Shown here in pieces: positions 26,009 through 46,532 of a stretch of DNA of 46,532 nt. Position 1 is the first letter of the stretch. The number at the start of each line of letters is the position of its first letter. Origin of the DNA: a phage. The translations under genes were made by a program, and so were the position numbers. The DNA lies in sequence record PZ379549.1, one strand, 5' to 3'. A model generated the notes under the pieces. It was not told the DNA's origin, did not search any database, and saw only the letters and a program-made list of their open reading frames with translations.

Positions 26009-26263
26009 TCAATCCTCCATCGTAAATGATTTGTTGGCGATAATATCTTGCGACTTCTGATTCTTGCGGTGCGTAATCCTTAGCGGCGCACGGAAAAGAT
26101 GTGCATTTGTCATAATCATTTTAGCATTACGCAATCTGCCAATCCTAAAAGCCTCAGTCCTGTTCTCGATGTGAGTTGAGCAAAACGCCTTCCATTTGAC
26201 AGAACAAACACGATGGTCTGACTCCGGGAAGAATGTTTCATAAGCTCGGAATCTTGTCACCAC
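26009..26263 (-). CDS. hypothetical ORF (possible frame-shifted helicase tail or separate small gene)
   Basis: 84-aa ORF overlapping helicase 3' end. Confidence 0.25.
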   Translation of the reverse strand: MVTRFRAYETFFPESDHRVCSVKWKAFCSTHIENRTEAFRIGRLRNAKMIMTNAHLFRAPLRITHRKNQKSQDIIANKSFTMED

Positions 26264-28006
26264 TGTGAGCCATTACCTCATATGAAGCAACGATCCCTGA
26301 CTGGTTCTTTGTTAACCCAATCTTGAAGTCATAAACTCGCAACCAGTCCCCCTTACGATACATTTTTCCTGATAACTTAGCATTCGGGTCTATGAGCATC
26401 TCACCACAGCATCTGCAATTCTTAGCTGCAATATCATTCTTCTCACCGCATCCTTTCTTAATGATAGCTTTGGTCTGTGGGTCCGCTATATCTTCACACA
26501 GTCTAAACTGAAAGAAGTGCTCACAGCGCTTCCAGTCAATTACGTTATTGCAGCGCCTGGCTAATTGAGAGTTCACATAAGAGCATGCCGGACAGATTCT
26601 TGGCTTATCACCACGCTTTCTTGCTGACCTAAATTTCTGGTCTTGTACCTCTTCTATAATTGGGTCGAAGTAAAGTTCAGCCATATCATCAAGCGTTCCA
26701 GCAAAATCAAGAACAACATGGTCATCTTTTACCATTCCAGCTTCTTTGTGCTTCTTCTTAAGGATACGCATACCACGACCAAGCAACTGAATGAGTAGAG
26801 TAATGCTACCAACCTTCCTCAGGATAATGCTTGTATCCCACGGGGGGCAGTTTACGCCAGTTGTGAGGCAACCAATCTGAAATATGAACTTATATTCTCC
26901 GTTGGCTGCCTTCTCAAGTATCTCTCTACGCTTCTTCTCACCAGTGGAGTTGGTAACTATCGCCCAAGTAACACCTTCTAGGAAGTGCGGCTGCCGCCTC
27001 CATCGCAATGCTGTTTGCCAGCGCAAGTTACCAATGCAGCATTCCTTGTTTCCATAAACTTAGCAGCAAATCCCATTATCTTTTGTGTCATCGTTTGGTT
27101 TTCGTGAATCTTTGCAGCCATCGCATCCATTTCTTTCTTGCTGAAGTCCTTAACCCCATCACTTCCATCAGGAGTGAACTCACTAAGGTCGTAGCCCAAA
27201 TCACCAACTTCACCGTAGACAGTAGGAACAACGAACCCCAAGTCAACAAGGTAGCTGGTTGGCACTTGCATTACAGTTTTGCGCCAGAATCCACGGACAT
27301 TTGGGTTACTAACTACAATGTGGTCGTTGTTACGGTACGGGCTGCCAGTCAAACCGAAGATGCGTAGTTCGCGACCATACTTCTCTTTGCAGCGTCTCTT
27401 CATCTCAGTAATGATTAGCGTGTACTGCGCACGACCAGTTCCGAGCAATCCGGTATTCACTCCATCCTTGAAAACCATCTCACCCTTCTTCGTGCTCATC
27501 TGCTCGAATGTTTCCTCGTTCTCTTCAGCTTCTACGATATCCATATGGTCAACCATATGACATTCATCTATCGCAATAACGGCAGGAACATAGTCACCAA
27601 GGCCCTTAAACAAGCCGTTAGCAGCCGTGCCCTCACTAGCCACTATGGTTGGGTAGTAAACTGATTTAACGTTAAGGCCAGCGCAATAGACGCTATTACG
27701 GATGCCGAAGTTACGAAGCTCTTCAGCGTTCTGGCTGATAATTTCTGACTGGCGAGAAAGCACCATGTAAGGAAGCCCAAGCTGTTCCATGCGCTTTCCA
27801 ATCATGGCAAGAATAATTGTCTTACCAGCAGATACAGACAGGTCTGCGATGAATGGGGCCTCGTACTTTCCAATAGCCTTCCCAATTGCATCAAATGTCA
27901 CACACTGGAATGGGTAAGGAGTGATTTCTCCAAACTGGTAATCTCTCTGAATCTGCTTAATCTTCTCTTGATCGAAGTTGGCTACTAAGCGCTCTACTGG
28001 AAGCAT
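26238..28006 (-). CDS. SF2 DEAH-box helicase with C-terminal Cys-rich region, one frame change near 26978-27026
   Basis: N-part ORF 26978-28006 has Walker A SAGKT and DECH; C-part ORF 26238-27026 has motif VI QLLGRGMR; the two overlap in different frames. Confidence 0.65.
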
Positions 28007-28102: not shown

Positions 28103-28492
28103 ATGTGTGAAATTGACAAGCGAACTATCAACGGCAATAACGGAACCATCCGCACGCAAGACAAGAAACAGCGCAAACGACCGTCAGGCTACTACGTATT
28201 GAAAGATGAAGTAAAGGCTGGGCTAAGAGCTCGTCTGGAGATGGTTCTTGACTTCTACGGCACGAAGGCCAATATCGCCAAGCAGTTAAATGTATCTCAC
28301 CAGACTGTAGAACAATGGTTTGATCGCGGTATGATTTCGGCTCGAGGCGCCCAGCGAGCACATAATGCGTACAAGAGAAATAAGGGAGGGTTCCGAGCTA
28401 CTTTCTGCCGACCAGACCTGCAATTTGACGGTAACGGTAAGCCTCTGACGCTTACGATGCAAGAAGCGCCACATGCTACGCGTGGTTACTGA
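28103..28492 (+). CDS. HTH DNA-binding protein (candidate regulator)
   Basis: HTH-like GTKANIAKQLNVSHQTVEQWF; first gene of rightward unit; a +1 frame continues 36 codons past the stop. Confidence 0.45.
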   Translation: MCEIDKRTINGNNGTIRTQDKKQRKRPSGYYVLKDEVKAGLRARLEMVLDFYGTKANIAKQLNVSHQTVEQWFDRGMISARGAQRAHNAYKRNKGGFRATFCRPDLQFDGNGKPLTLTMQEAPHATRGY

Positions 28493-28630: not shown

Positions 28631-29110
28631 ATGAACTGGCATGATTATTTTTACTATGTAGATGGCAAATTGCATTGGAAGATTAGCACTGCAAGACGTG
28701 TTAAGGTTGGCGATGAGTGCAACTCACTATCTACATCTGGCTATTACAAAGTGTCTGTTAATGGCTTTAGGACTTATGTACATAGAGTTGTGTGGGAGAT
28801 GTTTAATGGAGAACTTCAAAATGGCGACTACATTGATCATATAAACCATAACAAATTAGATAACAGAATAGAAAACCTAAGAGTAACAACAAATCAAGGT
28901 AACTCAAGAAATTGCAAGCTTAGCGTTTTATCAACAACTGGTTATTGTGGAGTGGCAAAGCTAAATCACGGAAAATTTAAGGCTCACATCAAGGTTGACG
29001 GCAAGCAGCTACACCTTGGGAACTTCGATACTCCAGAGCGGGCGTATAAAGTAAGAATTGAAGCAGAGGGAAAATACAACTTTCACGAAAATCACGGGTT
29101 AAGCAAATGA
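28631..29110 (+). CDS. HNH homing endonuclease with AP2-like domain (paralog of 100-585)
   Basis: Same architecture: DHINHNKLDNRIENLRVTTNQGN then GVAKLNHGKFKAHIKVDGKQLHLGNF. Confidence 0.7.
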   Translation: MNWHDYFYYVDGKLHWKISTARRVKVGDECNSLSTSGYYKVSVNGFRTYVHRVVWEMFNGELQNGDYIDHINHNKLDNRIENLRVTTNQGNSRNCKLSVLSTTGYCGVAKLNHGKFKAHIKVDGKQLHLGNFDTPERAYKVRIEAEGKYNFHENHGLSK

Positions 29111-30030
29111 ATTACGATAAGAATGAAGTTATACCTAAGATGGCCGGATTGTGGAAATCATTTTATGCAAAGGAACTTGGTTGGAATGATAGACACCTAA
29201 GTAAGAAGCACGGACCATGCCCATACTGCTTTGGCACTGACAGATTCAGATTTACCGACGAAATAGGCAGTGAAAAAGGAAATGGCGCGGCAGTTTGTTC
29301 GAAATGCGGAAGTGACTCCGGTATAGGATGGGTCATGAAGTGCACTGGATTGTCCTTCGCTGATTCAGTAAATTTGCTTGGTGACTGGCTGAACTTAATA
29401 CCAATTGAGGTTATAGTTAAAGCAAACAAGCAAGCATCAAGAACGCAGCGTTATAAAATTTGCGCTCAAGTAGACCACAAGAAAGTTCTTGAGGTCATGG
29501 AGAGGACTCAGCGAGTTGAATCTAGTCCACTCACGACATACGAGGGTATTTATGACGAGTTTGGTTTTGATGTTGGTATAGCTAAAAATTGTTCAATGAT
29601 TCACGCAATCCCTTGTTCGATGGTTTATGAAGATGGGCTTAGTGATGAGTTCTGTAACGTAATGTTTATTGATGAGGATTCAAATGTTAAGTTCCTTGCT
29701 GGTGATTACACTCGTGATTCTGTTTCCGTTATTGGTTCTAAGCTGGATGATAGTTATACTTATGTTGTTGACAATTATATTGATGGCATACGTGTTCACC
29801 TTGCTACTGGTGGGCGCGAAGTGTTTGTTGCTTTCTCCTGTTACAATATGGAGATGGTTATCCACCGCGACAAGTCAAGGAAGTTCAGAATTGCTTGCCG
29901 TGATTCTGATAGCGATATACTCGCTGTTGCTGACGATAGGGGTGTTGATGTTGTAGTTCCTAATGACGGTGAGTCATTTAAAACAGGCATACGAAAGAAA
30001 GTGTACAAAGCAAACGACTTGCTAAACTAA
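29107..30030 (+). CDS. DNA primase (zinc-finger plus TOPRIM-like)
   Basis: CPYCFG...CSKCGSDSG zinc-binding motif, acidic TOPRIM-like C-terminal half. Confidence 0.65.
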   Translation: MNYDKNEVIPKMAGLWKSFYAKELGWNDRHLSKKHGPCPYCFGTDRFRFTDEIGSEKGNGAAVCSKCGSDSGIGWVMKCTGLSFADSVNLLGDWLNLIPIEVIVKANKQASRTQRYKICAQVDHKKVLEVMERTQRVESSPLTTYEGIYDEFGFDVGIAKNCSMIHAIPCSMVYEDGLSDEFCNVMFIDEDSNVKFLAGDYTRDSVSVIGSKLDDSYTYVVDNYIDGIRVHLATGGREVFVAFSCYNMEMVIHRDKSRKFRIACRDSDSDILAVADDRGVDVVVPNDGESFKTGIRKKVYKANDLLN

Positions 30031-30051
30031 CCTCCTTCGGGAGGTTTTTTA
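30030..30051 (+). terminator. rho-independent terminator after primase
   Basis: ACCTCC-ttcg-GGAGGT followed by TTTTTT. Confidence 0.8.
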
Positions 30052-30115
30052 TTGCCTGAAAGATGGTAGAATGAATTTTGGCAATTAGTGCTACTTTACA
30101 AATGGAGACTTTACA

Positions 30116-32647
30116 ATGGCAATTTATGACTTAGGAACAGCATCACTAGCCTCAAATGGCGAGGTTACTGGCGTAGGTACTACATGGAAAGCACCTCTTA
30201 CACTGATTCGTGTAGGTGCTACTATCATTTTCAAAACCAGCCCTCTGAAAATTTACACCATCTCTGAAATCATCAGCGATACTCAGGTTAATGTTTATAA
30301 TCCAAGTTCTGAAACTGTTCCCGCTGGTACTGGTTACGCAATTCTTGCTCATGATGGAATTACTGTTCAGGGGTTGGCGCAGGATGTTGCGGAAACATTG
30401 CGTTACTACCAGTCAAAAGAGACTTCTATTGAAAGTCTACTGCAATTTATCGGGCAAGATACTTTCGATTGGCCTCGCTTCGAGCAGCTTGCAACCCAAT
30501 CAACCACTGGGGCTGCTGAGGCGCTAGCTAGTCAGATCGCTGCCGCTGAAAGTGCGAGTGCAGCCGCCTCAGCAAGAGACGCTACGACAGAGGCACGCGA
30601 TGCTACTATTAGCGCAATTAATAATGCTGGTGACGCCGGAACATTAGCAACGCTTGCATCTTACAATATAGCAAACTCAGTAGCAATTAGAGCTACCTCA
30701 TTTGATTGGCAAACTTACGCATTTAAAAACGGCTCAAAAGTTTTAGTGTCAAAGTCAGCAATGGTAAACACTCCTTCTAGTGTAAATGACCTTATATCAA
30801 GTGCCGGTGCTAGTCTTGATTATGTAATTGAGTGCAAGATTGTTACAGCAGGAACTGGAGAGTTGCTTTTATCATCAGCAACAACATCAAATGCAAACTA
30901 CTATAACTTATCTATTAGATACTCAGTGTCAAACTCAGTAAGAACGTTTTATACAAGGGAGATTTTATCAATTCCATCAGGAGGTATAAGTGGAGGAGCA
31001 AGCTCATCAAGGGTTAGGGATTTGATTGATGTTTATTCAAAATCCGAGACGTTTCAAAAATCATTGAATCTTTCAGACATTGCAGATAAGTCCGTGGCAA
31101 GAACCAACCTTGATGTTTACTCAAAGGGTGAGGTGTCATCAATTTTAAATACAGATTCAAAAAGCACATCAAGCTATAGCGGCTCAATATCTTCAGCAAT
31201 AAAAGCCGCTGGCGATGGCGGGTCGGTAGTTATAAGTCCGGGAACTTATGAGAGTAATAACTACTCCTTTGCTGGCAGGAACATATCAGGCTCTGGATAT
31301 AATACCGTAATAAGTGTTAAACCTTTTGAAACCGGACTCACCTCAACGCTATCGGTTCCTCACTGGAGGCAAAAGCATTTATCGGATTTGCAGTTTACAG
31401 GTACTGCAATACAAGGTAATAACGGCTTTCAATTCCCGAATGACCCTTATGCTGGCAGGATTGTGATGGATAGGCTGTACTTCAGCGACATTGATGTTGG
31501 TATACGTAAAAACGCTGGCAACATTGGAAATACCTACAGAAACGTAAGTGTTAGAAATGCGAATTACGGGTATAGAGCAAAAGCTCATGACAAAATGCAT
31601 ATAGGAGCGGACACTTTATACGGATACCACTCAGATACAATCTCTCAATATTCAGTAATGCTAGATGCGACAAGCACAAGTAGCGCAACGAACCCTGGTG
31701 CTGGAGGAATTGGTGGGTGGTGGATTAGGGATTCAATAATGGAGGCCTCTGCTGGCGGCGGTATAAGGTTAAAGAATAAACCTGGAGATTGCCCAACATC
31801 ACCTTGCGGATTGTCTAACGTATGGTTTGAAGCGATAGCAACTGGTGGGGCAATTAACGTAGGTGAGGGAGCTGAACTCCCAAGGGTTTTGAAGCTCATC
31901 GATACGTCCGTTTTCTTTGCTGAGCATTCTTATATTAATAACATTGAGTTATCAAATTCAAACCTTGTAACTTATGGGTGCAGGTTTGATAACGCTGATG
32001 GGCACCAAAGTTTCTCTCTTGATTCGAACAGTATTATTTTTGCTAAGGATGCATACCTGAATGGATCTTCAACATCAAACGTTATAGTTGAGTCGCTGGT
32101 ATCACAGACAGCCAAGATAACTGGCACTTCAAACCTATCTGTTAGAGGATATGTTACTAAGGGTCGAGTTTTTAATCCCGATTCCGGAACTGTTTTAGTC
32201 AGGAGGCCTTTTGGTACTGGTGGGAACAACTTTGGTGGAACAGGGTCGGCAAGTGAAGGTTCTGATACAAGGGGTATACACTCGCAATCATCTGGATACT
32301 ACGAATTGGCTGGTGCGGCTCAGTACGAATTGATAAATGGTGGCTTTAATATAACTTCCGGCAAATGGTATGCTTGGGGTATTTCTGCAAACAGGATTCA
32401 AGGCGGTGCTGATGGTATTATAAACATTTTTGGTAGCGCATCATTAGGAACTGTATTCACAGAAGCTGGTAAGTGGGTTCATACATTTGGCGTTGGTAAG
32501 GCTTCGGTTTCTGGCGTTGCAAACCTTAACATTAACCTCAATGGATTAACTGGTATGGTATTAAGCCTTGCTGATTATTTTGTTGTAAAATTTGATAATC
32601 AAAGGGACGCCTTGATATTTGCAAACTCAAGAGTTTCTCTTGCATAA
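30116..32647 (+). CDS. tail fiber / tailspike with probable beta-helix (depolymerase-like) domain
   Basis: 843-aa ORF, Ser/Thr/Gly/Asn-rich; central region resembles right-handed beta-helix carbohydrate-active domains. Confidence 0.6.
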   Translation: MAIYDLGTASLASNGEVTGVGTTWKAPLTLIRVGATIIFKTSPLKIYTISEIISDTQVNVYNPSSETVPAGTGYAILAHDGITVQGLAQDVAETLRYYQSKETSIESLLQFIGQDTFDWPRFEQLATQSTTGAAEALASQIAAAESASAAASARDATTEARDATISAINNAGDAGTLATLASYNIANSVAIRATSFDWQTYAFKNGSKVLVSKSAMVNTPSSVNDLISSAGASLDYVIECKIVTAGTGELLLSSATTSNANYYNLSIRYSVSNSVRTFYTREILSIPSGGISGGASSSRVRDLIDVYSKSETFQKSLNLSDIADKSVARTNLDVYSKGEVSSILNTDSKSTSSYSGSISSAIKAAGDGGSVVISPGTYESNNYSFAGRNISGSGYNTVISVKPFETGLTSTLSVPHWRQKHLSDLQFTGTAIQGNNGFQFPNDPYAGRIVMDRLYFSDIDVGIRKNAGNIGNTYRNVSVRNANYGYRAKAHDKMHIGADTLYGYHSDTISQYSVMLDATSTSSATNPGAGGIGGWWIRDSIMEASAGGGIRLKNKPGDCPTSPCGLSNVWFEAIATGGAINVGEGAELPRVLKLIDTSVFFAEHSYINNIELSNSNLVTYGCRFDNADGHQSFSLDSNSIIFAKDAYLNGSSTSNVIVESLVSQTAKITGTSNLSVRGYVTKGRVFNPDSGTVLVRRPFGTGGNNFGGTGSASEGSDTRGIHSQSSGYYELAGAAQYELINGGFNITSGKWYAWGISANRIQGGADGIINIFGSASLGTVFTEAGKWVHTFGVGKASVSGVANLNINLNGLTGMVLSLADYFVVKFDNQRDALIFANSRVSLA

Positions 32648-32677
32648 AAAAAAGCCCCGAAAGGGGCTTTATCTTTT
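32646..32677. terminator. bidirectional rho-independent terminator
   Basis: A8-AGCCCC-gaaa-GGGGCT-TTATCTTTT between convergent tail fiber and SSB genes. Confidence 0.8.
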
Positions 32678-32678
32678 A

Positions 32679-33116
32679 TCAGAATGGAATATCTCCGTCG
32701 AATGTGTTTTGCTGTTGTTGTTGTTGTTGTTGCTGTTGATGTTGCGGTTGATGGCGCTGTTGTTGCTCTGTATTTTTATGTTGCTGTGCACCCTCACCAC
32801 GCTGACTAAACTCAAGACGAGGATTGTTCATGTTAATTGTTATGTAAGTCTTGCCATCTTTATCTCGAACATCTAATGCTAACGTCTCACAACTTACGCT
32901 AACAATCTTCCCTTCCTGAAACGCTTCGTTATACCATGTAAGCATTGATTCCTTTGCGAAGAAGACGGCACGATAGTTGCTATACTGAGATTGACCATCT
33001 TTATCCTTGTAACGCTCACTTAAATCAACCGCGTACATCTTCCAACTGCCATTTGCATTCTGACCTTCTTTAGTGAACGGAGCGCGACGGATAACACCAG
33101 TGATTACATGACTCAT
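32679..33116 (-). CDS. ssb: single-stranded DNA-binding protein
   Basis: OB-fold-like N-terminus, Gln-rich linker, canonical acidic C-terminal tail ending DGDIPF. Confidence 0.8.
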   Translation of the reverse strand: MSHVITGVIRRAPFTKEGQNANGSWKMYAVDLSERYKDKDGQSQYSNYRAVFFAKESMLTWYNEAFQEGKIVSVSCETLALDVRDKDGKTYITINMNNPRLEFSQRGEGAQQHKNTEQQQRHQPQHQQQQQQQQQQNTFDGDIPF

Positions 33117-33156: not shown

Positions 33157-33807
33157 TTAGAATGTGTCGATTTCTTGAGATTGTACTTCAACTTTTTCTT
33201 CTTGAACAGACTTTTGTGCAACCTGTTTAGGTTTTGCAGGATTGAAGCCGTTAGTTGCATTAGCCTGAATTTCTGCCTTACGCTCAATGATGTGAGGTTC
33301 AATCACCAGCCAACCAGCTGAATCAAGAGACTGCTTGGCTTCTTTGTATACATCACGCAGGTCATCAAGAGTGTTGCACTTAGCTAAATCTTTCTTAAAT
33401 GAGTTGATACCCTTAACTGCAAGCTGACCATCATCATCTGCCTGGCTCAATCCTAATGCCGCTGTAATTGCATAACGGCGAGCATATGTAAGTGATGAGC
33501 CGTAACCTTGAGCATCTTGCTTGCTGATTGGGACGATTGTCAGGAAGCTGACCCACTCTCCAGATTCTGCATGATAGACAGTTGTTTCAACCTTAATTCT
33601 AGTTGTGGCTTCATCATCAATCATGCCTTGAAACATGACCAGGCCGCTATCTGCAAGGCCAGGCTCTACAGCCGCCAGTACGTCTTCCAGGGTGGCGTAC
33701 CTGTTCTTTAGGTGCGAGTTCTGCTTTGACTTTTCAGCCTTTGCAAACTTTGATTTGGCCTCAAATAAAGCCTTCAATACTTGCTTGTTTTGATCTGAAG
33801 TTTTCAT
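33157..33807 (-). CDS. Erf-family single-strand annealing protein
   Basis: Erf-like core ...QGYGSSLTYARRYAITAALGLSQADDD... Confidence 0.65.
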   Translation of the reverse strand: MKTSDQNKQVLKALFEAKSKFAKAEKSKQNSHLKNRYATLEDVLAAVEPGLADSGLVMFQGMIDDEATTRIKVETTVYHAESGEWVSFLTIVPISKQDAQGYGSSLTYARRYAITAALGLSQADDDGQLAVKGINSFKKDLAKCNTLDDLRDVYKEAKQSLDSAGWLVIEPHIIERKAEIQANATNGFNPAKPKQVAQKSVQEEKVEVQSQEIDTF

Positions 33808-33884
33808 TAACTATCTCTCTTTCGTTTAAGTGGGGCAATCATACCTCACCTTTTGATTTTGTCTTTAGCAATTAGTGCTATTTT
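33808..33884 (-). promoter_or_regulatory. box-(-10)-leader unit upstream of erf
   Basis: Box 33863-33884 containing exonuclease stop TAG, TATGAT, CACTTAAACGAAAGAGAGA. Confidence 0.4.
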
Positions 33885-34849
33885 AGAAGTTCTTGATACT
33901 GCTTACTTACCCACTCAGGAATCATCAAATCTTGCTCTGTAATCCCATTGCTATACCCAGGCCATACATCAAGCTCCTTGCACTGTTTGTATGTTGCTAG
34001 TGCCTCACAATATTGTAAACGACCAATGCGAAGCTGTTCATCTGTAAGCGTGTAGCTCATTGGTAAGTAAGGCTCCGTTTTTTCCTGCGCCAGAAGTCGA
34101 ACCACAACCTTACGCTTCTCGTTAAATGCCTTCACGAACAAGTCACGCTGAAGGCTCATTTTGCACAGGTATCCATGGTCATAAGCTGACTTGCCAAATC
34201 CTCTCGGGCTTGCGTCCGCCGTCGTCTTGTAGTCAGTAATGAAAACCACGCCATCAACAACATCCACGTGATCAAGCCTAACCTTAACACCACACCCAAG
34301 AATCTCACCAAAGATTGATAGCTCTTTCTGTGCTGTTGGTGAGTTAATAATCGCATCGTAAGCTGGGATATTAGTAAGAACCTCGCGCATTGAGATTACC
34401 TTATCGTAATCTTTCGCAGTAACGAGCTCTTTGCCACTAATTAACGCCTCAGCGCTCTCCTGCTGCTCAATTAACCATTTAACAGGCCAATCCTCACCAG
34501 ATTTATACATCATCTCCACGAGCTCGCTATATCCCTTCCCTGACGTGCCTGAAACTCCAACTTTTTTAAGCGCTGCGGATAAAGCCGTTTGGCTAGTAAT
34601 CAATCCTTCCACTTCGTCAAAGTCAGTAGCTCGCATGTATGTTGAGTCAAATACCTCGCGCTCTAGCATCATGCAGTGACTTAGTGTGCCAAATTTAAGT
34701 GCTGCGCTAGAGTTATTGCGCTGCTTAAACTTCCATTTAGCTGGTGAGGTAGCAAGAATCTCAGCCAGTGAAGAGCCAGAGATATGGTCTTGCTCTTCGT
34801 GATAGGATTCATTTGTTAGCTCGTCGTTCGTATAAACTTTAAATGTCAT
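33878..34849 (-). CDS. PD-(D/E)XK-type recombination exonuclease
   Basis: 323-aa ORF upstream of erf with D...ITDYKT nuclease-like motif. Confidence 0.5.
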   Translation of the reverse strand: MTFKVYTNDELTNESYHEEQDHISGSSLAEILATSPAKWKFKQRNNSSAALKFGTLSHCMMLEREVFDSTYMRATDFDEVEGLITSQTALSAALKKVGVSGTSGKGYSELVEMMYKSGEDWPVKWLIEQQESAEALISGKELVTAKDYDKVISMREVLTNIPAYDAIINSPTAQKELSIFGEILGCGVKVRLDHVDVVDGVVFITDYKTTADASPRGFGKSAYDHGYLCKMSLQRDLFVKAFNEKRKVVVRLLAQEKTEPYLPMSYTLTDEQLRIGRLQYCEALATYKQCKELDVWPGYSNGITEQDLMIPEWVSKQYQELLK

Positions 34850-35591: not shown

Positions 35592-36282
35592 ATGGTTATC
35601 TGGTCTTTATTTGATGGTTCTGGTCTGGCGGTAAAGGATTGGGCTGAAGCTGGCCACACTTGCTACTGTTTCAACTTTGATGAGTCTGACCACGGCAGCT
35701 ACAGTGACTTAAATGCAAAGGTTGAGCATGAGAACATCACATACGTTAACGCATGGATAGATGCTGACTTCGATTTTGATGTGAAACCTGATTTTATAAT
35801 GGCGTTCCCTCCATGCACTGACTTAGCCGTGAGCGGATCAAGACACTTTGAACGCAAGTGTACTAGCTAACCCTAACTTCCAAATTGAAGCTGCGGAGAC
35901 GTGCAAGATTGCTTTTAATCTTGCTGAAAAATACGGAGTACCATACATGATCGAGAACCCAATCAGCGTACTGTCATCACTTTGGCGAAAACCTGATAAC
36001 ACCTTCCACCCATATGAATACGGAGGCTATTTGCCGGAAGATGATTTACACCCGTTTTTTAGCGACCTAATAAAGCCAAAAGACGCATATCCCAAGAAGA
36101 CATGCATTTGGTATGGCAATGGGTTTAAATGGCCAGAGGCAATTCCAGTGGACGTTAACGGTGGATTCTCTGACCAATACAAGAAGCTAGGCGGGAAGAG
36201 CAATAAGACAAAGGTAATTCGCAGCCTAACTCCTCGCGGTTTTGCAAAAGCCGTCTTCATTGCAAATAGCACCAATTGCTAA
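35592..36282 (+). CDS. C5-cytosine DNA methyltransferase-like, one frame change near 35848-35870
   Basis: Motif I LFDGSGLA, PC motif FPPCTDLAVSG, ENV-like MIENP; two overlapping ORFs in different frames. Confidence 0.5.
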
Positions 36283-36350: not shown

Positions 36351-36596
36351 ATGACTAACTTAATCAAACTTTCAATCATCGCAGCAGCAGCAATCATGAT
36401 GGTGGGTTGTTCTTCTGCTCCGCGTCCTGACGGATGGTGTGCAACGCAAGCAAACGGCGTGTGCGTGGCTAAATGGGAAAATGGTGTGGTTGTACCGTCT
36501 GGTGAAGTTGATGTGCGATACGCTGGTATTGAGAGCAAGGCTGGCGGCGGTTACGGTGGCTCTGTTGCTGACCATGGGTCTAAGGAGTGGAAATAA
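36351..36596 (+). CDS. cor: Cor-like outer-membrane lipoprotein (superinfection exclusion)
   Basis: 81-aa ORF with lipoprotein signal and lipobox MMVGCSS; adjacent to tail fiber genes. Confidence 0.55.
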
Positions 36597-37558
36597 TGCC
36601 TCAAGGAATATTGATTGACCTTAATGATGGAAGGCCACCTATGGAAATAACGGCAGGATTAAGAGCGCCCGCTGTGACTGGCTCAATAAATACCAATGGA
36701 CTTTCGACGCCAGCATCATCATGGGATTTTGGTTTAACCATGTCCCCAGGCTCAACAGCATTCTGCCTTCCAACAAAGGCTGTGCACGTTGACGCTTATG
36801 ATGTTGTACCTGAAGTTTATTATATGAACGGGTTCCAGAAGGTAAATGACGGAACTGGCAGGATAACGCTTAGTGACTTCAATGGCGCAAGAGGTCGTAT
36901 AATTGACTTTGCTGGAAATTGCTTTGAAATACTCCCAGCCTCGTCTTCATCAAGCCCAGGAATACTGGTTGAGAACTCAACTGACTTTTTGGCAATTTCA
37001 AGCAATTCGCGGTTAATGTCTGCGGCATGGGTTGGTGGAATACAGGTTAACGGCGCCGCCTCACTACCAGTCAGTGGGATTCCATTTGGTAAATGGGATA
37101 ACCCAAACGTTTCTCTGGAGAGCGACGGTAATACAATTTGGTGCCGCAACATAAACTACAGCGGCATAGATGACGTTGCAGCAAGTACTTACGTACAGTT
37201 AGTGATATTCAGGAATGACCCTCCAGTAGCTGGCCCAGGACTCACAATGTCTAATAGTTCTGGACAGATTGTTTTTTCAAGCGTCAGGCGACCGTTCGTG
37301 CTTGGTGGCTTTATACAAATAACCAATGGTTTCCAGTCAATAAATGGAGGGTTCTTCCCACTGCTCAGGTGCGGCGCTACAACAAGAGTTACTGGAGGGT
37401 ATAACAACTTAAGGTACAAGGGAATATGCATGTCTGGTGGTGCCGTAAGGGCAGTTCCAGGCACTGTGATAGGGAACTACTCAACGCAGACGGGGGCCCA
37501 ATTCCCATTCGACACAAACATATCAATGGCTCTACCATTCATACCAAACTTCTACTAA
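36596..37558 (+). CDS. hypothetical tail-associated protein
   Basis: 321-aa Gly/Ser/Asn-rich ORF convergent with J; TAATG overlap with cor stop. Confidence 0.4.
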   Translation: MPQGILIDLNDGRPPMEITAGLRAPAVTGSINTNGLSTPASSWDFGLTMSPGSTAFCLPTKAVHVDAYDVVPEVYYMNGFQKVNDGTGRITLSDFNGARGRIIDFAGNCFEILPASSSSSPGILVENSTDFLAISSNSRLMSAAWVGGIQVNGAASLPVSGIPFGKWDNPNVSLESDGNTIWCRNINYSGIDDVAASTYVQLVIFRNDPPVAGPGLTMSNSSGQIVFSSVRRPFVLGGFIQITNGFQSINGGFFPLLRCGATTRVTGGYNNLRYKGICMSGGAVRAVPGTVIGNYSTQTGAQFPFDTNISMALPFIPNFY

Positions 37559-37565
37559 AAGAAAA

Positions 37566-37581
37566 GGCCCCGAAAGGGGCC
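37566..37581. terminator. bidirectional terminator hairpin
   Basis: GGCCCC-gaaa-GGGGCC flanked by A/T runs between convergent genes. Confidence 0.75.
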
Positions 37582-37588
37582 TAATCAT

Positions 37589-40500
37589 TTACCACACTCC
37601 AACTACAACCCTTCCACCATTCGGTAAATTAACTGTAATTCCATTATTGTTAATCTGAACAGTGTTGTTGGTTCCGTTAAACGCAAAGTTGCCGTTACTT
37701 GCGTACAGACTACCCCTTACAGTTGCATTGTTAAGTTCCGCACTGCCTGACTTATCAATGGCCCAACCCTGAGAACCAGCCACGTAGTTATTAGATTGAA
37801 TCCGGTTACCAATCTTCGCGTTAGTGATTGAACCATCCTGAATCACTGCGCTTTGAATGAATACCTGATTACCTTCAACTACGAAAGGCAATGACCACTG
37901 ACCGGATCCAGAGCTAATGCCGTTACTGATTGCTAACCTGTTAGCATCAAAGATGACCTGACTACGAACATTGCCATCAGAACCAGTTAGCTCCATACTC
38001 ATGCCAGAACTGTACTCAACGCCATTGTATTTGAGGCCAAGTTTAATCCCGTACTGAGCACCAATTGAATCGGCAGTAACGTAAGTGTCCAACTTCTCAT
38101 TTAACGCAGCCTCATTATCACCTAGCCTTGCAGATAAAGCAGTGTCCGCAGTGGTCCTTGCTTGCGTCTCTTCCGCTAGCGCCGTATCAATCCTTGTCAA
38201 TGAAGCTACAATCTCATCATCAATCTGCGCCTTAAGCTGCGTCAGAGCCTCTACGCGAGCCCTTTCTTCATCGGCGATAAGATTCACAGCCTGAACAAAT
38301 TCGGCCTTCCTCTTGCCGTTTTCCTTCGTCATTCTACGCACGTCACCATCATTAGCCAGGGCGTTCTCAATTATTGATTCCGCTTGCGCCTGAATAGCTC
38401 CGTTTGACTCAATGGCATTCTGTTGGAGATACTTGAACCCATCTGAGTTTTCTATATCAACCTTAATATCACCAATGATTGACGACACATCATCGCTTGC
38501 CATACCCCTTACAAAATCAGTCCATGGTGAGACGTTACCAATCTTGTCAATCAGTCGCGCCCTGTACCAGATGACCTTTCCAGCAGGAAGTGTAGTATGC
38601 CAGTACTCGTAACTCGGGTAAGGCACCAGAGTCAGAAGGCTAGCATTCTCTGGTGTATAAGTACCATCACCATTGTCGGCTACTTGCTGCAATTCAGTGT
38701 ATGACGTATCGGCTGAGTTTTCAGGAAATCCCCACTTAACCCTAATGCCGAATATTTCATCATCTGAAGCGGTGATTACTGTAGGTGAAGAAGGGGTCCC
38801 AATCTTGCCTGTGAGGCTTACTGAAACAATGTCAGACCATGCGGATACGTTTTCAGTATCAGAAACGGCCCTTACGCGAACCTGGTAAATTCCGGCATAG
38901 ATACCTTCAATATCAACCTCTGTGCTTGCTGTGCGCGGCACGTTAATCCAGTTTCCGTTCTCCTTGCGCCACTGTACCGTGTAGGTTTTCGCGTACTGAA
39001 CCTTGTCCCACGTGATTACCATTGTCTCAACTGATAAACCCTGAACAACCTTACTGTAACTGCTAACCTGAACATTCTCGGGTGCCAGTAATGTATCTGG
39101 CTCCACGATTGAAGTTGGCCTGTCCTGAATGTTTACGCCGTAATCAATCTCGTCGTATTTGTTCGGGTCGTACTCAACTGCGGTAATCGTGTAACCAAAC
39201 GCATCATCTCCATCGCTGTCTGCTTTTTGAATACCGGTCACAACATATTGCTGAAGAGCAAGATTTTCCTTATCAATCGCAAATACTGTGTCAGGCTGAG
39301 GAGTAAAGCTAAACGCTGTATTAAGTTGCAGCGTCATACCATCTTCAGATACAGATGCAATGGTCCTGTACTCCGGCATTCCATCAGGCTTGTTTATTAG
39401 AATCCTGTCGCCAGCAGTAGCATCAATCTTAAATGGCACAAAAACTTGCAACCCACTTACTGACTCGATACGACCAGAAAGGTTAAGGGTGTAGTTGCTA
39501 GACCATGCCTGGTCATTAACTGCAATAACCTCACCAATCATTGGAATCATACCTTCCAGACCAGTAGTGAAACTAATAGTCTCGCTGCGAATGTTCGTCT
39601 TTAATAACCAGCGCCCGCGGCGGTTTGCCTCACTCCTGCGAGTACATCCAATAGCTGTAAGGTCGACCGGGTTGTAACCAAAACGCCTTGTTGCCTCTAA
39701 CTCGAATACTGGCTCAACATCCTGTTGGTATGAGTTTTCAACGTCATCAAACTGAACGTTGGCAACCGTGTAAAGTGACTTATCGCTACCAAATGTACGG
39801 TTGAACAATCCATCAACAACGTTGTCATTGGTGAATACGTACGATGGTTGACGCGGCTTATCGACAACAATCCCTATCTGCTCGCCGTCATAGAATGTCA
39901 GCCCACGGAAGATAGAGCAAATATCACGGATTACCTGATATGCTTCAACTTTCTGCTGAATGACAACATCACACAGGTAGCGCGGCTCAACTCCACCCTT
40001 ACCATCTGGAACCATCTGGTCACAGAATTGCGCCGCCTCATACAGACCCCACTTATCAATAGTAATGCCAAGCTCTCGCTGGTCAAGTCCGTAACGCTGA
40101 TTCGTCACCAAGTCGTAAAGAACCCACGCCGGGTTATTGGAATACGCCATCTTAAAGGTGCCGTTCCAGGTTCCGCTGTAAGTCCTTGTCTCTGGGTTGT
40201 AGTTAGTTGGAACGCGAATCAACTTCCACTTCTTCTTGATTGAAATCGTCGGGATTCCGTTAGGGAAGAGGTCAGAACTGAACTCAACGTAAACCAGCGC
40301 TGTAAGTGGGTAGCGGAATTTCGCATCAATTACTTCCTGATAGGTCGTAATTTGCATATTGTTAACCAGCGTCGAACTTTCTGAATCTGCCGTGATCTTA
40401 CGAACCCTCACCAACGCACTCGAGAACTCAGCAGGAAGGTTAACCCTGATACTTCTGTCGTACCCGCTAGTTGTCTTGCCATTAGCTACTCCGCGCGTGT

Positions 40501-41014
40501 ACTCAGTGTATGTAGCGCCATCAACGGACAGGTCAATCGCATACTCGCAAGTGGTACCGTTAAGATCTCCGTTACTTTCCTGATTAATCAGACGAGGCCA
40601 AAACAGCTTAACCCTAATCGCTGATAGCTGGGTGTTATTAACAGCAATGATGTAAGGAGTTGAGTTTTTAATCTCCCTGTTCACTTGCACTTCCGAGTTA
40701 GCACCCTCTAGCCCGGCAATGTAATCCTGACTCTGTGTGCCAGGGCGAAACTCTGCCGTTACACCCTCGTAGTTGTATGTGCCATTCTGGTTCTGTACAG
40801 GAACGTCAGCAAGGTAAAGGTCCTTTAGGGAGAATGAGCTATCAACCTCACCATCAGAAACAGCTAGCAAAACCTTAACCTTGTTTACGGATATCAGGTT
40901 ATCAGGCTGCTCTACAGGTTGGTGCTGCTTTGGCTGTCCGCCCTTACTTCCATAAATCTTAATTTCTTCCGCCATATCACATAGCTCCGCATTTGTTTTG
41001 ACCATTTGTGCCAT
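37589..41014 (-). CDS. host specificity / central tail fiber protein (lambda J-like)
   Basis: 1141-aa ORF at distal end of lambda-like tail module after I, K, L, M. Confidence 0.8.
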   Translation of the reverse strand: MAQMVKTNAELCDMAEEIKIYGSKGGQPKQHQPVEQPDNLISVNKVKVLLAVSDGEVDSSFSLKDLYLADVPVQNQNGTYNYEGVTAEFRPGTQSQDYIAGLEGANSEVQVNREIKNSTPYIIAVNNTQLSAIRVKLFWPRLINQESNGDLNGTTCEYAIDLSVDGATYTEYTRGVANGKTTSGYDRSIRVNLPAEFSSALVRVRKITADSESSTLVNNMQITTYQEVIDAKFRYPLTALVYVEFSSDLFPNGIPTISIKKKWKLIRVPTNYNPETRTYSGTWNGTFKMAYSNNPAWVLYDLVTNQRYGLDQRELGITIDKWGLYEAAQFCDQMVPDGKGGVEPRYLCDVVIQQKVEAYQVIRDICSIFRGLTFYDGEQIGIVVDKPRQPSYVFTNDNVVDGLFNRTFGSDKSLYTVANVQFDDVENSYQQDVEPVFELEATRRFGYNPVDLTAIGCTRRSEANRRGRWLLKTNIRSETISFTTGLEGMIPMIGEVIAVNDQAWSSNYTLNLSGRIESVSGLQVFVPFKIDATAGDRILINKPDGMPEYRTIASVSEDGMTLQLNTAFSFTPQPDTVFAIDKENLALQQYVVTGIQKADSDGDDAFGYTITAVEYDPNKYDEIDYGVNIQDRPTSIVEPDTLLAPENVQVSSYSKVVQGLSVETMVITWDKVQYAKTYTVQWRKENGNWINVPRTASTEVDIEGIYAGIYQVRVRAVSDTENVSAWSDIVSVSLTGKIGTPSSPTVITASDDEIFGIRVKWGFPENSADTSYTELQQVADNGDGTYTPENASLLTLVPYPSYEYWHTTLPAGKVIWYRARLIDKIGNVSPWTDFVRGMASDDVSSIIGDIKVDIENSDGFKYLQQNAIESNGAIQAQAESIIENALANDGDVRRMTKENGKRKAEFVQAVNLIADEERARVEALTQLKAQIDDEIVASLTRIDTALAEETQARTTADTALSARLGDNEAALNEKLDTYVTADSIGAQYGIKLGLKYNGVEYSSGMSMELTGSDGNVRSQVIFDANRLAISNGISSGSGQWSLPFVVEGNQVFIQSAVIQDGSITNAKIGNRIQSNNYVAGSQGWAIDKSGSAELNNATVRGSLYASNGNFAFNGTNNTVQINNNGITVNLPNGGRVVVGVW

Positions 41015-43558: not shown

Positions 43559-46532
43559 TTAGTTGTAACCCCTCAGATAAGCAAAGGCTCTTCCGCCCTG
43601 CTGGAATGACTTGCTGATTTCCTCAGCAACGATAACCTTGACTCCAGATTCTATCGCCTTAGCATCATTTCCGCCACCAATTCCAGAGTTTACGTTAACC
43701 GTCACGCCGCCAACACTGACATTCGTGCCACCAACAACTCCACCATTAGCATAGCCAGAGGGCCCACCAACAGCGCCGCCATTTGCATAACCTCGCATTA
43801 GCTTGTACAGGTTCTTAACGCCAATCCTGCTTGTAGCTTCTTTTGTGAATACAAACTCACCGCGGTGCACAGTTCCAGCAGGTTGATACTTCCCGCCGTC
43901 TCCAGTGTAGCCGCCACCAGCAAAGCCAATTGCTGACTTTATTGACTCAAAGGCACTACCTGCTCCAGTGTCACCACCAAAGCTCTTAATTGTAGATTCA
44001 ATAGCCTTTACCAAAAGTAGCTGAGTTGCAATTTTCGCAATCATTTTCAGTATGTTTGCCGTGAACTCCCTGAAATTAGTCTCTCCAGTGGTTACAAGGT
44101 TTGTAATCTGGTCGGTAATTCCATCAAAAGCTGCGACAGTCAAATCCTTAGCAATTTGGTTGAAGTCAGTGTACTTCTCAGTTAAGTCAGCAAGCGTTGA
44201 AGTTACACCAGCTTGCCAGTCTGACCTTAGGTTATCTTCCTGCCTGTAGTATTCTTTTCTTGCTTCCAGCAGATTTTGGAAATCAACATCATTTACAGAG
44301 CCACCCTTGTTTACCTGATTGGACTCTAGCGCCTGAAGTTCTCCTGCCCTTTGCCGCTCCCTTTCGGATAGACCCGCAGCAAGTGAAACATTCTTCGCCT
44401 CATTGGTAATCTGTATTGTCTTCTTAAGGTTGTCATCAAGTAACTTGTTTGACCTCTCCTGAAGCACAATCTGGTCACCAAGTTCAGCCTTCTGTTTAGC
44501 CTGTTCAAGAATGATATTCTTCTGCGCAAGTAGCTTAGCCTGTGATTTTGTAAGCGTACCATCCGCTTGTCTTTGTTCAAGTATTGCAAACTTCGCTTCT
44601 TCCTGGAATAACTGCTTTCTTTCATTGCTTATTACATCATTTATCGTTCTGTGCTCTTGTAAGACCTTTAACTGAGCCTGAAGTGCAAGAACGCCAGATT
44701 CATAAGATAAAGTTAAATCACTTTCTTCTTTTACAGCCTTTTTCCTCTCACTCCTTGCTTTCTTTATCGCATCATACTCATCGGCAAGAGCCTTCTTCCT
44801 TGCTGCAAACTCCTTATCGGTTGATGCATTATTGCCGCTAAGGTTGGTGTTATTGTTGTTCTCGACATAACCAAGCTCACCCTTCCTGATTCTCGCATCT
44901 CGCTCAGCTATGCTTTTTGCTAACTCCTCATTTTGCTTCTTAGCTGCATCAACAATCTTTTGCTGCTCAGCGATTGCTTCATTGCCTAAATCGCCAAGTC
45001 CAGGTATTGACTGAAGTGTCTTGGTTGCTGCTATTGCAAACTCGCCCAATAGGATATCACCGGAGTTTATTAACGACCTTATCTGCTCAATAGTCCCAGC
45101 AACAACGTCAGTTATTAAGTTAAGCGCCCCAAGCGTCCTTTTGCTTATATCATCCCAAATCTCACTTACAAACTTCCTGAAGCTATTCCATGCGCTCTCA
45201 AGAGGGTTAAGGCTTAGTGCTACGTCTGCTAGCCTGTTTTCCATAACGTTAGCGAATAGCTCAGTAGCTGCGGTTACAGCCTCTGTTTCTCCAGCCGTCT
45301 TCCTGATATTCTCAATGTATTTCAATTGCCCAGACTGAAGGAAGTTGAACTGCTTATCGAGTGCAATCAGACCTTGAATTGGGTCCTTTGTAATCTGATC
45401 AAAGTATCCAAGAATAGTTTTCGAGTCTGTTGATGTTACAGTTGCCCATTGTGCTGTCGCCTTGGTTATCTTATCTATCTGCGTAAGAGTCAGATTACCG
45501 TTTGCTACCAGGCTGTTAGCTATCTCCTGGATAAGTCCGCGCGTGGCTAGTGTTGAACTCTCAATTCCATCAACAACCTGATTTATCTGCGCTGTCGACG
45601 TGATAGTTGAGTTGCCAACCAATGTTATCGTTGATGCTAGTCCGCGAGTGTTCTTGTCAGCCTGATAAGCAGCAACACCAAGAGCGCCGAGGGCCAAGCC
45701 CAAAGTCCCAACAACTGCCGTTAATGGGTTAATGGCTGCCAGTGCGAACCTTGCGGTGTTAGCAATACCACCAAAGCTATCCTTAATCTGCCCACCCTGC
45801 TGAATTGCAATTAGCCAGATTGGGATACCACCAGCTAGAGAGGTTCCGATATCTGTAATCTGCGCTGGAAGCTGTCGAATTGCTTGCTTGTATTGACCGG
45901 CACTAAGCCCAGACTTAACAAAAGCGGAGCTTTGCTTCTGCAATTGTACCGCAGATGCCTCGGCAGCCTTTCCAATCCTGTCGATAATCGGTGCAGCCTG
46001 GTCACCAACTCCTAGCTGAGCAGCCTTAAGCTGAAGAAGTTCAGTCCTTGTCAGGCTTGCTGCATTCGCCTCGTTCTCAAGAGATTGAATGAACTTTTGC
46101 GCTGCTGTTGTTGCTTTCTCTTTATCTATTGATGCCTGTAGTGCAGCCCTGCCTTCTTCGCTAAGAGCGGCTTTAGACCTGTTTAGCTTATTGATTTGAG
46201 TTTCAATAACAGAGCCAAGCCTGAAGAATTCATCATCAGGAACTATCCCGGATTCAAATGCTTTGTCCAAATCTGTTGCTGCTTTCTGCAACTTCAGGAA
46301 TTTAGCAGCGGTTGGGTCTATGGCTTGCTGAAGTGATGCGAAAGATTTGCGCTGCTCCTCAAGCTGCCTTGCAGTGTCCCTTGCTTGAGTCTTGGCTACA
46401 AGTTCGGCGTTGACGAAGCTATTAATGCCTGTTGCAGCTTGCTCGTTTGCTTGCCTGAATTTCTGTAAGGATTGCGTACCCTTATCGACCTGAGCTACGT
46501 CGACGGCTAGCGTGATACCAGCAATTTCGTTA
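43559..46532 (-). CDS. tail tape measure protein, 5' end runs off window
   Basis: Long alpha-helical Ala/Gln/Lys-rich ORF; track start 46291 is TTG; hand translation shows frame open from 46291 to 46532. Confidence 0.8.
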   Translation of the reverse strand, partial: NEIAGITLAVDVAQVDKGTQSLQKFRQANEQAATGINSFVNAELVAKTQARDTARQLEEQRKSFASLQQAIDPTAAKFLKLQKAATDLDKAFESGIVPDDEFFRLGSVIETQINKLNRSKAALSEEGRAALQASIDKEKATTAAQKFIQSLENEANAASLTRTELLQLKAAQLGVGDQAAPIIDRIGKAAEASAVQLQKQSSAFVKSGLSAGQYKQAIRQLPAQITDIGTSLAGGIPIWLIAIQQGGQIKDSFGGIANTARFALAAINPLTAVVGTLGLALGALGVAAYQADKNTRGLASTITLVGNSTITSTAQINQVVDGIESSTLATRGLIQEIANSLVANGNLTLTQIDKITKATAQWATVTSTDSKTILGYFDQITKDPIQGLIALDKQFNFLQSGQLKYIENIRKTAGETEAVTAATELFANVMENRLADVALSLNPLESAWNSFRKFVSEIWDDISKRTLGALNLITDVVAGTIEQIRSLINSGDILLGEFAIAATKTLQSIPGLGDLGNEAIAEQQKIVDAAKKQNEELAKSIAERDARIRKGELGYVENNNNTNLSGNNASTDKEFAARKKALADEYDAIKKARSERKKAVKEESDLTLSYESGVLALQAQLKVLQEHRTINDVISNERKQLFQEEAKFAILEQRQADGTLTKSQAKLLAQKNIILEQAKQKAELGDQIVLQERSNKLLDDNLKKTIQITNEAKNVSLAAGLSERERQRAGELQALESNQVNKGGSVNDVDFQNLLEARKEYYRQEDNLRSDWQAGVTSTLADLTEKYTDFNQIAKDLTVAAFDGITDQITNLVTTGETNFREFTANILKMIAKIATQLLLVKAIESTIKSFGGDTGAGSAFESIKSAIGFAGGGYTGDGGKYQPAGTVHRGEFVFTKEATSRIGVKNLYKLMRGYANGGAVGGPSGYANGGVVGGTNVSVGGVTVNVNSGIGGGNDAKAIESGVKVIVAEEISKSFQQGGRAFAYLRGYN

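Follow-up and report, generated by a model that had tools for sequence, protein, structure and literature searches.

The window, i.e. the whole stretch of 46,532 nt analysed here (PZ379549.1), is essentially a Drexlerviridae genome, the nearest records to it being those of the Escherichia phages ES and AN_ECEAS (Braunvirinae). An ATG-to-stop reading confirmed the 843-aa plus-strand ORF reported in the earlier note, which runs without interruption from the ATG at 30116 to the stop codon at 32645-32647, and annotation of the neighbours likewise placed it between the primase and the recombination genes. The features referred to below are:

28103-28492, plus strand: transcriptional regulator, upstream of the fibre gene
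28631-29110, plus strand: HNH endonuclease (phrog_99, E 1e-56)
29107-30030, plus strand: primase, directly upstream neighbour of the fibre gene
30029-30107, plus strand: upstream control region of the fibre gene (terminator scan and sequence reading)
30029-30046, plus strand: terminator-like hairpin 3' of the primase (terminator scan)
30064-30072, plus strand: TGnTAGAAT, extended -10-like element (sequence reading)
30104-30107, plus strand: GGAG ribosome-binding site, 8 nt upstream of the fibre ATG (sequence reading)
30116-32647, plus strand: lateral tail fibre/tailspike gene (ORF, PHROG matches, AN_ECEAS homologues)
30116-30555, plus strand: conserved N-terminal virion-anchor region, aa 1-~146 (homology and AF2)
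30556-30987, plus strand: divergent middle cassette, aa ~148-291, comprising the end of the coiled coil and a ~100-aa beta domain (AN_ECEAS comparison)
31007-31132, plus strand: linker with two copies of the (D/N)L(I)DVYSKxE motif, aa 298-311 and 326-339 (motif positions)
31223-32170, plus strand: right-handed parallel beta-helix, aa ~370-685, presumed glycan-binding/cleaving domain
31742-31831, plus strand: candidate catalytic stretch, Glu543 (31742-31744) to Glu572 (31829-31831) (residue conservation)
32189-32644, plus strand: C-terminal beta-sandwich, aa ~692-843 (AF2 strands, pLDDT ~90)
32651-32670, both strands: putative bidirectional terminator hairpin at the convergent fibre/SSB junction (perfect 8-bp stem, terminator scan)
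32679-33116, minus strand: SSB, downstream of and convergent with the fibre gene
33157-33807, minus strand: Erf, likewise downstream and convergent
33878-34849, minus strand: ExoVIII/RecE, likewise downstream and convergent
36351-36596, plus strand: Rtp45-like lipoprotein, 81% identical to Rtp45
36587-37558, plus strand: Rtp44-like receptor-binding protein (RBP), 40% identical to Rtp44
37589-41014, minus strand: J-like central tail fibre, 83% identical to Rtp gp43
beyond J, as far as the tape measure (43559-46291): the other genes of the tail module

The fibre ORF matches two 'tail fiber protein' families in PHROG (E 3.5e-135 over aa 139-843 and 1.6e-128 over aa 1-372) and has full-length homologues at 84-86% aa identity in phage genomes and contigs of ~45-48 kb; the homologues in AN_ECEAS are annotated 'tail fiber protein'. 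These matches identify it as a real gene rather than a chance ORF and, together with the homology of the N-terminal anchor, uphold its previous designation as a tail fibre. The exact protein is absent from a collection of 15 billion sequences. One full-length relative, P0006, is 79% identical overall and 92% identical over the C-terminal module; deposited as an E. coli 'hypothetical protein', it probably stems from a lytic-phage contig within a bacterial assembly. Upstream, the HNH endonuclease ORF sits between the regulator and the primase, whose start it overlaps by 4 nt, and is likely a homing-endonuclease insertion, since Rtp and T1 have no gene at that position.

When the window neighbours were compared with Rtp and T1, gene order and orientation at the fibre locus proved identical. 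Rtp carries, in this order, rtp51 (primase), rtp50 (fibre), rtp49 (SSB), rtp48 (Erf) and rtp47 (RecE), and the fibre gene in the window likewise lies between the primase and SSB/Erf/RecE, convergent with the latter. The BASEL study (PMC8594841) places the lateral-tail-fibre locus of all Drexlerviridae between conserved genes for recombination and for primase/helicase and confines conservation within the fibre gene to its 5' end, and the Rtp GenBank record lists rtp50 as a 'putative tail fiber with beta-helix fold' whose similarity to T1 gp26 is limited to the N-terminal region. The gene thus encodes the lateral fibre of an Rtp/T1-like siphophage and lies where such genes normally lie; as a host-recognition gene it is of a familiar type. 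It is true, as had been remarked before, that the tail module is encoded on the minus strand and away from the fibre gene (the J-like fibre lies at 37589-41014), yet the comparison with Rtp and T1 shows that the opposite strand and the distance are a conserved family layout that was described before. Because this locus is fixed in all Drexlerviridae, the distance from the tail module is no evidence of exchange. The modular exchange that the earlier note had taken it to suggest nevertheless stands, as it is directly visible in the mosaic homology inside the fibre gene.

Signals in the flanks suggest how the gene might be transcribed. The hairpin at 32651-32670 (stem AAAGCCCC-GAAA-GGGGCTTT) is followed by a run of T on the minus strand and, less markedly, by a T-rich tail (5/8) on the plus strand, by which we predict it to be a bidirectional intrinsic terminator. 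Given this hairpin and the one at 30029-30046, the fibre gene may be a separate, presumably late, transcription unit. A promoter scan detected no sigma-70 consensus promoter upstream of the fibre gene, and the TGnTAGAAT element is at best a weak, consensus-level candidate for its promoter. Terminators on both sides and a place apart from the tail genes are also what one might find if the gene encoded a soluble or moron-type enzyme among the replication genes instead of a virion component. We consider this extremely improbable, because the N-terminus of the protein is a family-wide fibre anchor that is common to the virion depolymerase Depo32, Rtp50 and T1 gp26, and because all Drexlerviridae keep their lateral fibre at this conserved locus (PMC8594841).

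By its homologies, the fibre protein is a mosaic in which no fewer than three pieces are exchangeable. The first is the anchor (aa 1-~145), which is almost unchanged in close relatives. Over the first ~125 aa, identity amounts to 79% with Rtp50 and 52% with T1. Phage records matching the protein number 940, the majority from Drexlerviridae, and most of them cover only this part, which hundreds of Drexlerviridae fibres share and which corresponds to the conserved lateral-fibre N-terminal anchor of that family; the N-terminus is common to 247 proteins. At the DNA level, nt 1-440 of the gene are 93% identical to AN_ECEAS. While rtp50 and T1 gp26 thus share with the fibre gene their locus, orientation and a homologous N-terminal stretch of ~125-145 aa, and Rtp50 is also annotated as a beta-helix, Rtp50 has no detectable sequence similarity to the present fibre beyond aa ~142, the lateral fibre of T1 is split into two genes, and the receptor-binding module found here comes from another sequence family than theirs. 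A match to Depo32/DpK2, the capsule depolymerases of Klebsiella Webervirus phages (PDB 7vyv, 7vz3, 7lzj), covers aa 1-212 (E 6e-32). Beyond aa ~212 this homology ends: the beta-helix and C-terminal domains of Depo32/DpK2 are unrelated in sequence to those of the fibre here, which in addition has a variable middle domain and the DVYSK linker, and their host is Klebsiella K2 rather than E. coli. AF2 predicted a small beta-barrel at aa 1-80 (pLDDT ~80), followed by long helices (aa 84-182) compatible with a trimeric coiled coil, an arrangement that cannot show in a monomer prediction such as ours. That the fibre would be trimeric and attached to the tail tip is suggested by its homology to the trimeric Depo32 (three chains per entry).

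The second piece is the middle cassette. Compared with AN_ECEAS, nt 1-440 and 873-2532 of the fibre gene are 93% identical, with no detectable DNA similarity in between, and this ~430-nt cassette (30556-30987) is also dissimilar from the otherwise 93%-identical fibre gene of phage ES. At the protein level, its identity to any relative is 17-53%, and a search of a phage database for its donor yielded a best match of 40% (ACG-M12 tail fibre). The cassette is a new allele. As the helicase gene in the window carries frameshifts, we considered whether the middle segment was a frameshift artefact as well, and rejected this: from one end of the gene to the other, relatives can be aligned without a change of frame, and the divergence exists at the DNA level and is not merely out of frame. 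As to the helicase itself, the replicative one (26238-28006, minus strand), it is split into the overlapping ORFs 26978-28006 and 26238-27026, whereas Rtp gp53 is a single 664-aa ORF. The match to gp53 shifts frame three times (gp53 aa 1-335, 336-342, 343-593 and 584-664 in frames -3, -1, -2 and -3), with the three long segments 88-95% identical to gp53, which looks like sequencing or assembly indels, or else a pseudogenised essential gene. Within the cassette, the beta domain at aa 190-285 was predicted with confidence (pLDDT 68-87). A Foldseek search with the AF2 model of aa 1-372, a poor model (pLDDT 62.8), returned nothing significant (best E 0.2), for the middle beta domain included. The cassette could act as a second, variable domain for contact with the host, or simply as a spacer knob. 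Downstream of it, the homology of N-terminal relatives stops at aa 306-344 and that of C-terminal relatives starts at aa 340-357; as both breaks coincide with the DVYSK linker, this linker marks the module junction and probably serves as the recombination linker through which modules are swapped.

The third piece is the receptor-binding module (aa 341-843). By AF2 and the structural search, it contains a right-handed parallel beta-helix of roughly 10-13 rungs, with the tailspike/pectin-lyase fold of carbohydrate enzymes and tailspikes. Tailspike modules of this kind attach to surface sugars, which they usually also cut, and move between unrelated phages. The earlier note, which had called the beta-helix central, was therefore correct about the fold, though not strictly about the position, since the helix occupies aa ~370-685 and, together with the beta-sandwich, makes up the C-terminal 60% of the protein. 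The beta-sandwich resembles CBM22 carbohydrate-binding modules in Foldseek (~165 columns, TM 0.53-0.56, E 3e-4). With the P22, Sf6, HK620 and CBA120 tailspikes, all O-antigen endoglycosidases, the module shares the right-handed parallel beta-helix and the presence of a C-terminal domain, but in sequence the beta-helices are not similar (10-14% identical when aligned by structure). Sequence searches placed it in no curated beta-helix family such as Pect-lyase_RHGA_epim or Beta_helix: a Pfam scan of the fibre protein gave no match at E<=1, and a scan of 53 module homologues hit N-terminal adaptor domains only, without any beta-helix or enzyme family. A profile search of PDB sequences with the homologue alignment, dominated by the adaptor columns, matched adaptor domains and returned no beta-helix relative; the sole match in the beta-helix was a marginal pectinesterase (E 0.42). 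Besides, the Peptidase_S74 chaperone domain (PF13884), which defines the alternative allele class at this locus and occurs in many proteins sharing the N-terminus, is absent here.

Relatives of this module make up a sizeable family. Clustered at 50% identity, those with E<=1e-3 give 194 clusters, of which 35 reach E<=1e-30, and nearly all of these clusters cover the beta-helix and the terminal domain together. Among the 53 homologues, the module is fused, at 35-47% identity, to P22 head-binding domains in 15, to TSP1/gp66 N-terminal domains in 25 and to T7 tail-fibre N-termini in two; relatives close in sequence carry adaptors of the first two kinds. Many relatives, including 661-aa proteins among P0012-P0045, bear an adaptor of the type of gp13 from the Shigella siphophage Sf11 (PDB 9occ, E 4.9e-21), which means that the module is also deployed on Sf11-type siphophage tails. 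Sf11 itself is a siphophage decorated with an O-antigen-using tailspike (PMC12724387), but gp13 is listed beside the baseplate hub proteins gp14 and gp16 and docks on a helix of the distal tail protein, whereas the fibre here has the Drexlerviridae anchor and a separate locus. Conversely, the Drexlerviridae N-terminus is elsewhere fused to Peptidase_S74 chaperone fibres, Phage_tail_C_2, Gp53-like_C, and pectate-lyase-like, GDPD or endo/exonuclease-phosphatase-type domains. A named phage protein with this module is gp17 of LM33_P1, a T7-like podophage (Kayfunavirus) of O25b-ST131 E. coli, whose homology extends across the whole beta-helix and C-terminal domain: aa 371-843 are 46% identical (E 1e-119), and the module corresponds to aa ~260-726 of the LM33_P1 fibre, which differs in that its N-terminal adaptor is of the T7 type and its tail that of a podovirus. 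With only 46% identity, the O25b specificity of LM33_P1 is not transferable to the present fibre, and the glycan specificities of the two probably differ. A literature search turned up no work on the enzymology or structure of the fibre module of LM33_P1; the Gp17 treated in PMC9202026 is unrelated.

Conservation within the module points to a candidate active site. Across 116 aligned sequences of the family (25-97% identity), Glu572 is conserved in every one (100%), and Glu543 (89%, otherwise Gln), His495 (89%), Asp636 (84%) and Asp499 (73%) follow. The stretch aa 541-630 is also the best conserved between distant homologues, at 57-90% (with one block at 30% in P0052). Glu543 and Glu572 lie 29 residues apart, about one helix rung, and this spacing would resemble that of the catalytic carboxylates in the P22, Sf6 and HK620 tailspikes. 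From the predicted fold and the conserved acidic residues we infer that the module probably cleaves glycan at a site including Glu572 and Glu543, and the label 'depolymerase' should be understood in the same sense. A non-catalytic adhesin, binding glycan reversibly without cleavage like the T5 pb1 lateral fibre, would agree with the lack of any enzyme family in the sequence searches and with the behaviour of the related ES17 fibre (ES17-TFP), the sole tested relative of the module found in our literature search, which is reported to bind heparan sulfate and for which no depolymerase activity was detected (PMC7885116). Moreover, of the two main RBP classes that have been tested at this locus in Webervirus, the pectate-lyase-like RBPs degrade capsule, and the chaperone-type RBPs have been proposed, from their missing depolymerase domains, to be non-cleaving O-antigen binders (PMC13463945). 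However, those non-enzymatic RBPs are of the Peptidase_S74 fibre class and not beta-helices, and the fibre here belongs with the beta-helix (pectate-lyase-like) class, not with the chaperone class. An invariant and a near-invariant Glu about one rung apart, despite 25-45% family identity, are what one would expect of a conserved active site, and the structural neighbours of the beta-helix are overwhelmingly active glycanases, lyases or epimerases. We therefore regard a pure adhesin as improbable and retain probable cleavage. It is similarly doubtful that the chemistry would be that of a lyase or epimerase (beta-elimination on a uronic-acid polymer) and not of a hydrolase.

Regarding the target, the O-antigen is favoured because relatives of the module occur in P22-type prophage tailspikes and in LM33_P1, a phage associated with O25b, even though for the lateral fibres of Drexlerviridae such a role 'has never been directly demonstrated' (PMC8594841). 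A capsule (K antigen) or another exopolysaccharide would be the target if the protein were a Depo32-like capsule depolymerase, for which the N-terminal anchor, homologous to the K2 capsule depolymerase Depo32, and several structural neighbours that are capsule depolymerases (among them K2-2 TSP, KP32gp38 and K1 lyase) might be cited. Yet the Depo32 homology stops at aa ~212 and leaves the receptor-binding module outside, the sequence relatives of the module sit on O-antigen-associated P22-type and LM33_P1-type proteins, and fold similarity cannot tell substrates apart, so that we deem a capsular target possible, if on balance unlikely.

Taken together, we assign a probability of roughly 0.8 to the reading that the gene encodes an Rtp/T1-like lateral fibre with a distal tailspike that recognises, and probably cleaves, a surface polysaccharide, most likely the O-antigen, and that evolves by cassette exchange. 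In such a fibre, the N-terminal ~145 residues would dock a presumed homotrimer onto the tail tip, and the coiled coil, the variable middle knob and the DVYSK linker would carry the beta-helix and the C-terminal beta-sandwich. This distal module would recognise the host surface polysaccharide, most likely O-antigen, and probably cleave its repeating glycan, allowing a reversible, processive primary adsorption during which the virion works its way through the glycan layer. The J fibre and the Rtp44-like RBP would then reach an outer-membrane protein receptor, within the framework of PMC8594841. Specificity would evolve by cassette exchange at the conserved linker motifs, with podophages, prophages and other siphophages as donors. 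The earlier proposal of a likely host-range determinant survives for the fibre as a glycan-recognition module but not as the sole determinant, as it would be one of two: we expect the Rtp44-like RBP and J (36587-41014) to determine which protein acts as the terminal receptor. With no more than 40% identity to Rtp44, this RBP may use another outer-membrane receptor than LptD, which is the prediction for Rtp.

The fibre gene leaves the current understanding of Drexlerviridae adsorption unchanged. A beta-helix fibre at this locus is already annotated in Rtp, and structures of the Webervirus counterparts have been solved. What is new is modest and comprises the exact sequence, the allele of the middle cassette and a module family that has no Pfam model, structure or biochemistry. 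A bolder combination, which we find rather unlikely, is that the C-terminal 500 aa represent a structurally and biochemically uncharacterised tailspike family (no Pfam model or solved sequence relative, at least 194 clusters at 50% identity, the invariant Glu572 and at least five adaptor types) and that the middle cassette (aa 148-291) is at the same time a second glycan-binding domain and not a passive spacer; if so, the fibre would have two independently evolving specificity modules. In practical terms, the gene offers a probable glycan-specificity module as a piece to swap or engineer for host-range design, for which the DVYSK junction (aa ~298-345), together with Glu543 and Glu572 as candidate catalytic residues, provides handles, and the fibre protein could serve as a serotype-specific glycan probe or enzyme. 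Elsewhere in the window, a plus-strand ORF with a TTG start (35848-36282, 144 aa) matches only positions 100-220 of the 247-position DNA methyltransferase profile phrog_757, and may be truncated or have its start mis-set.
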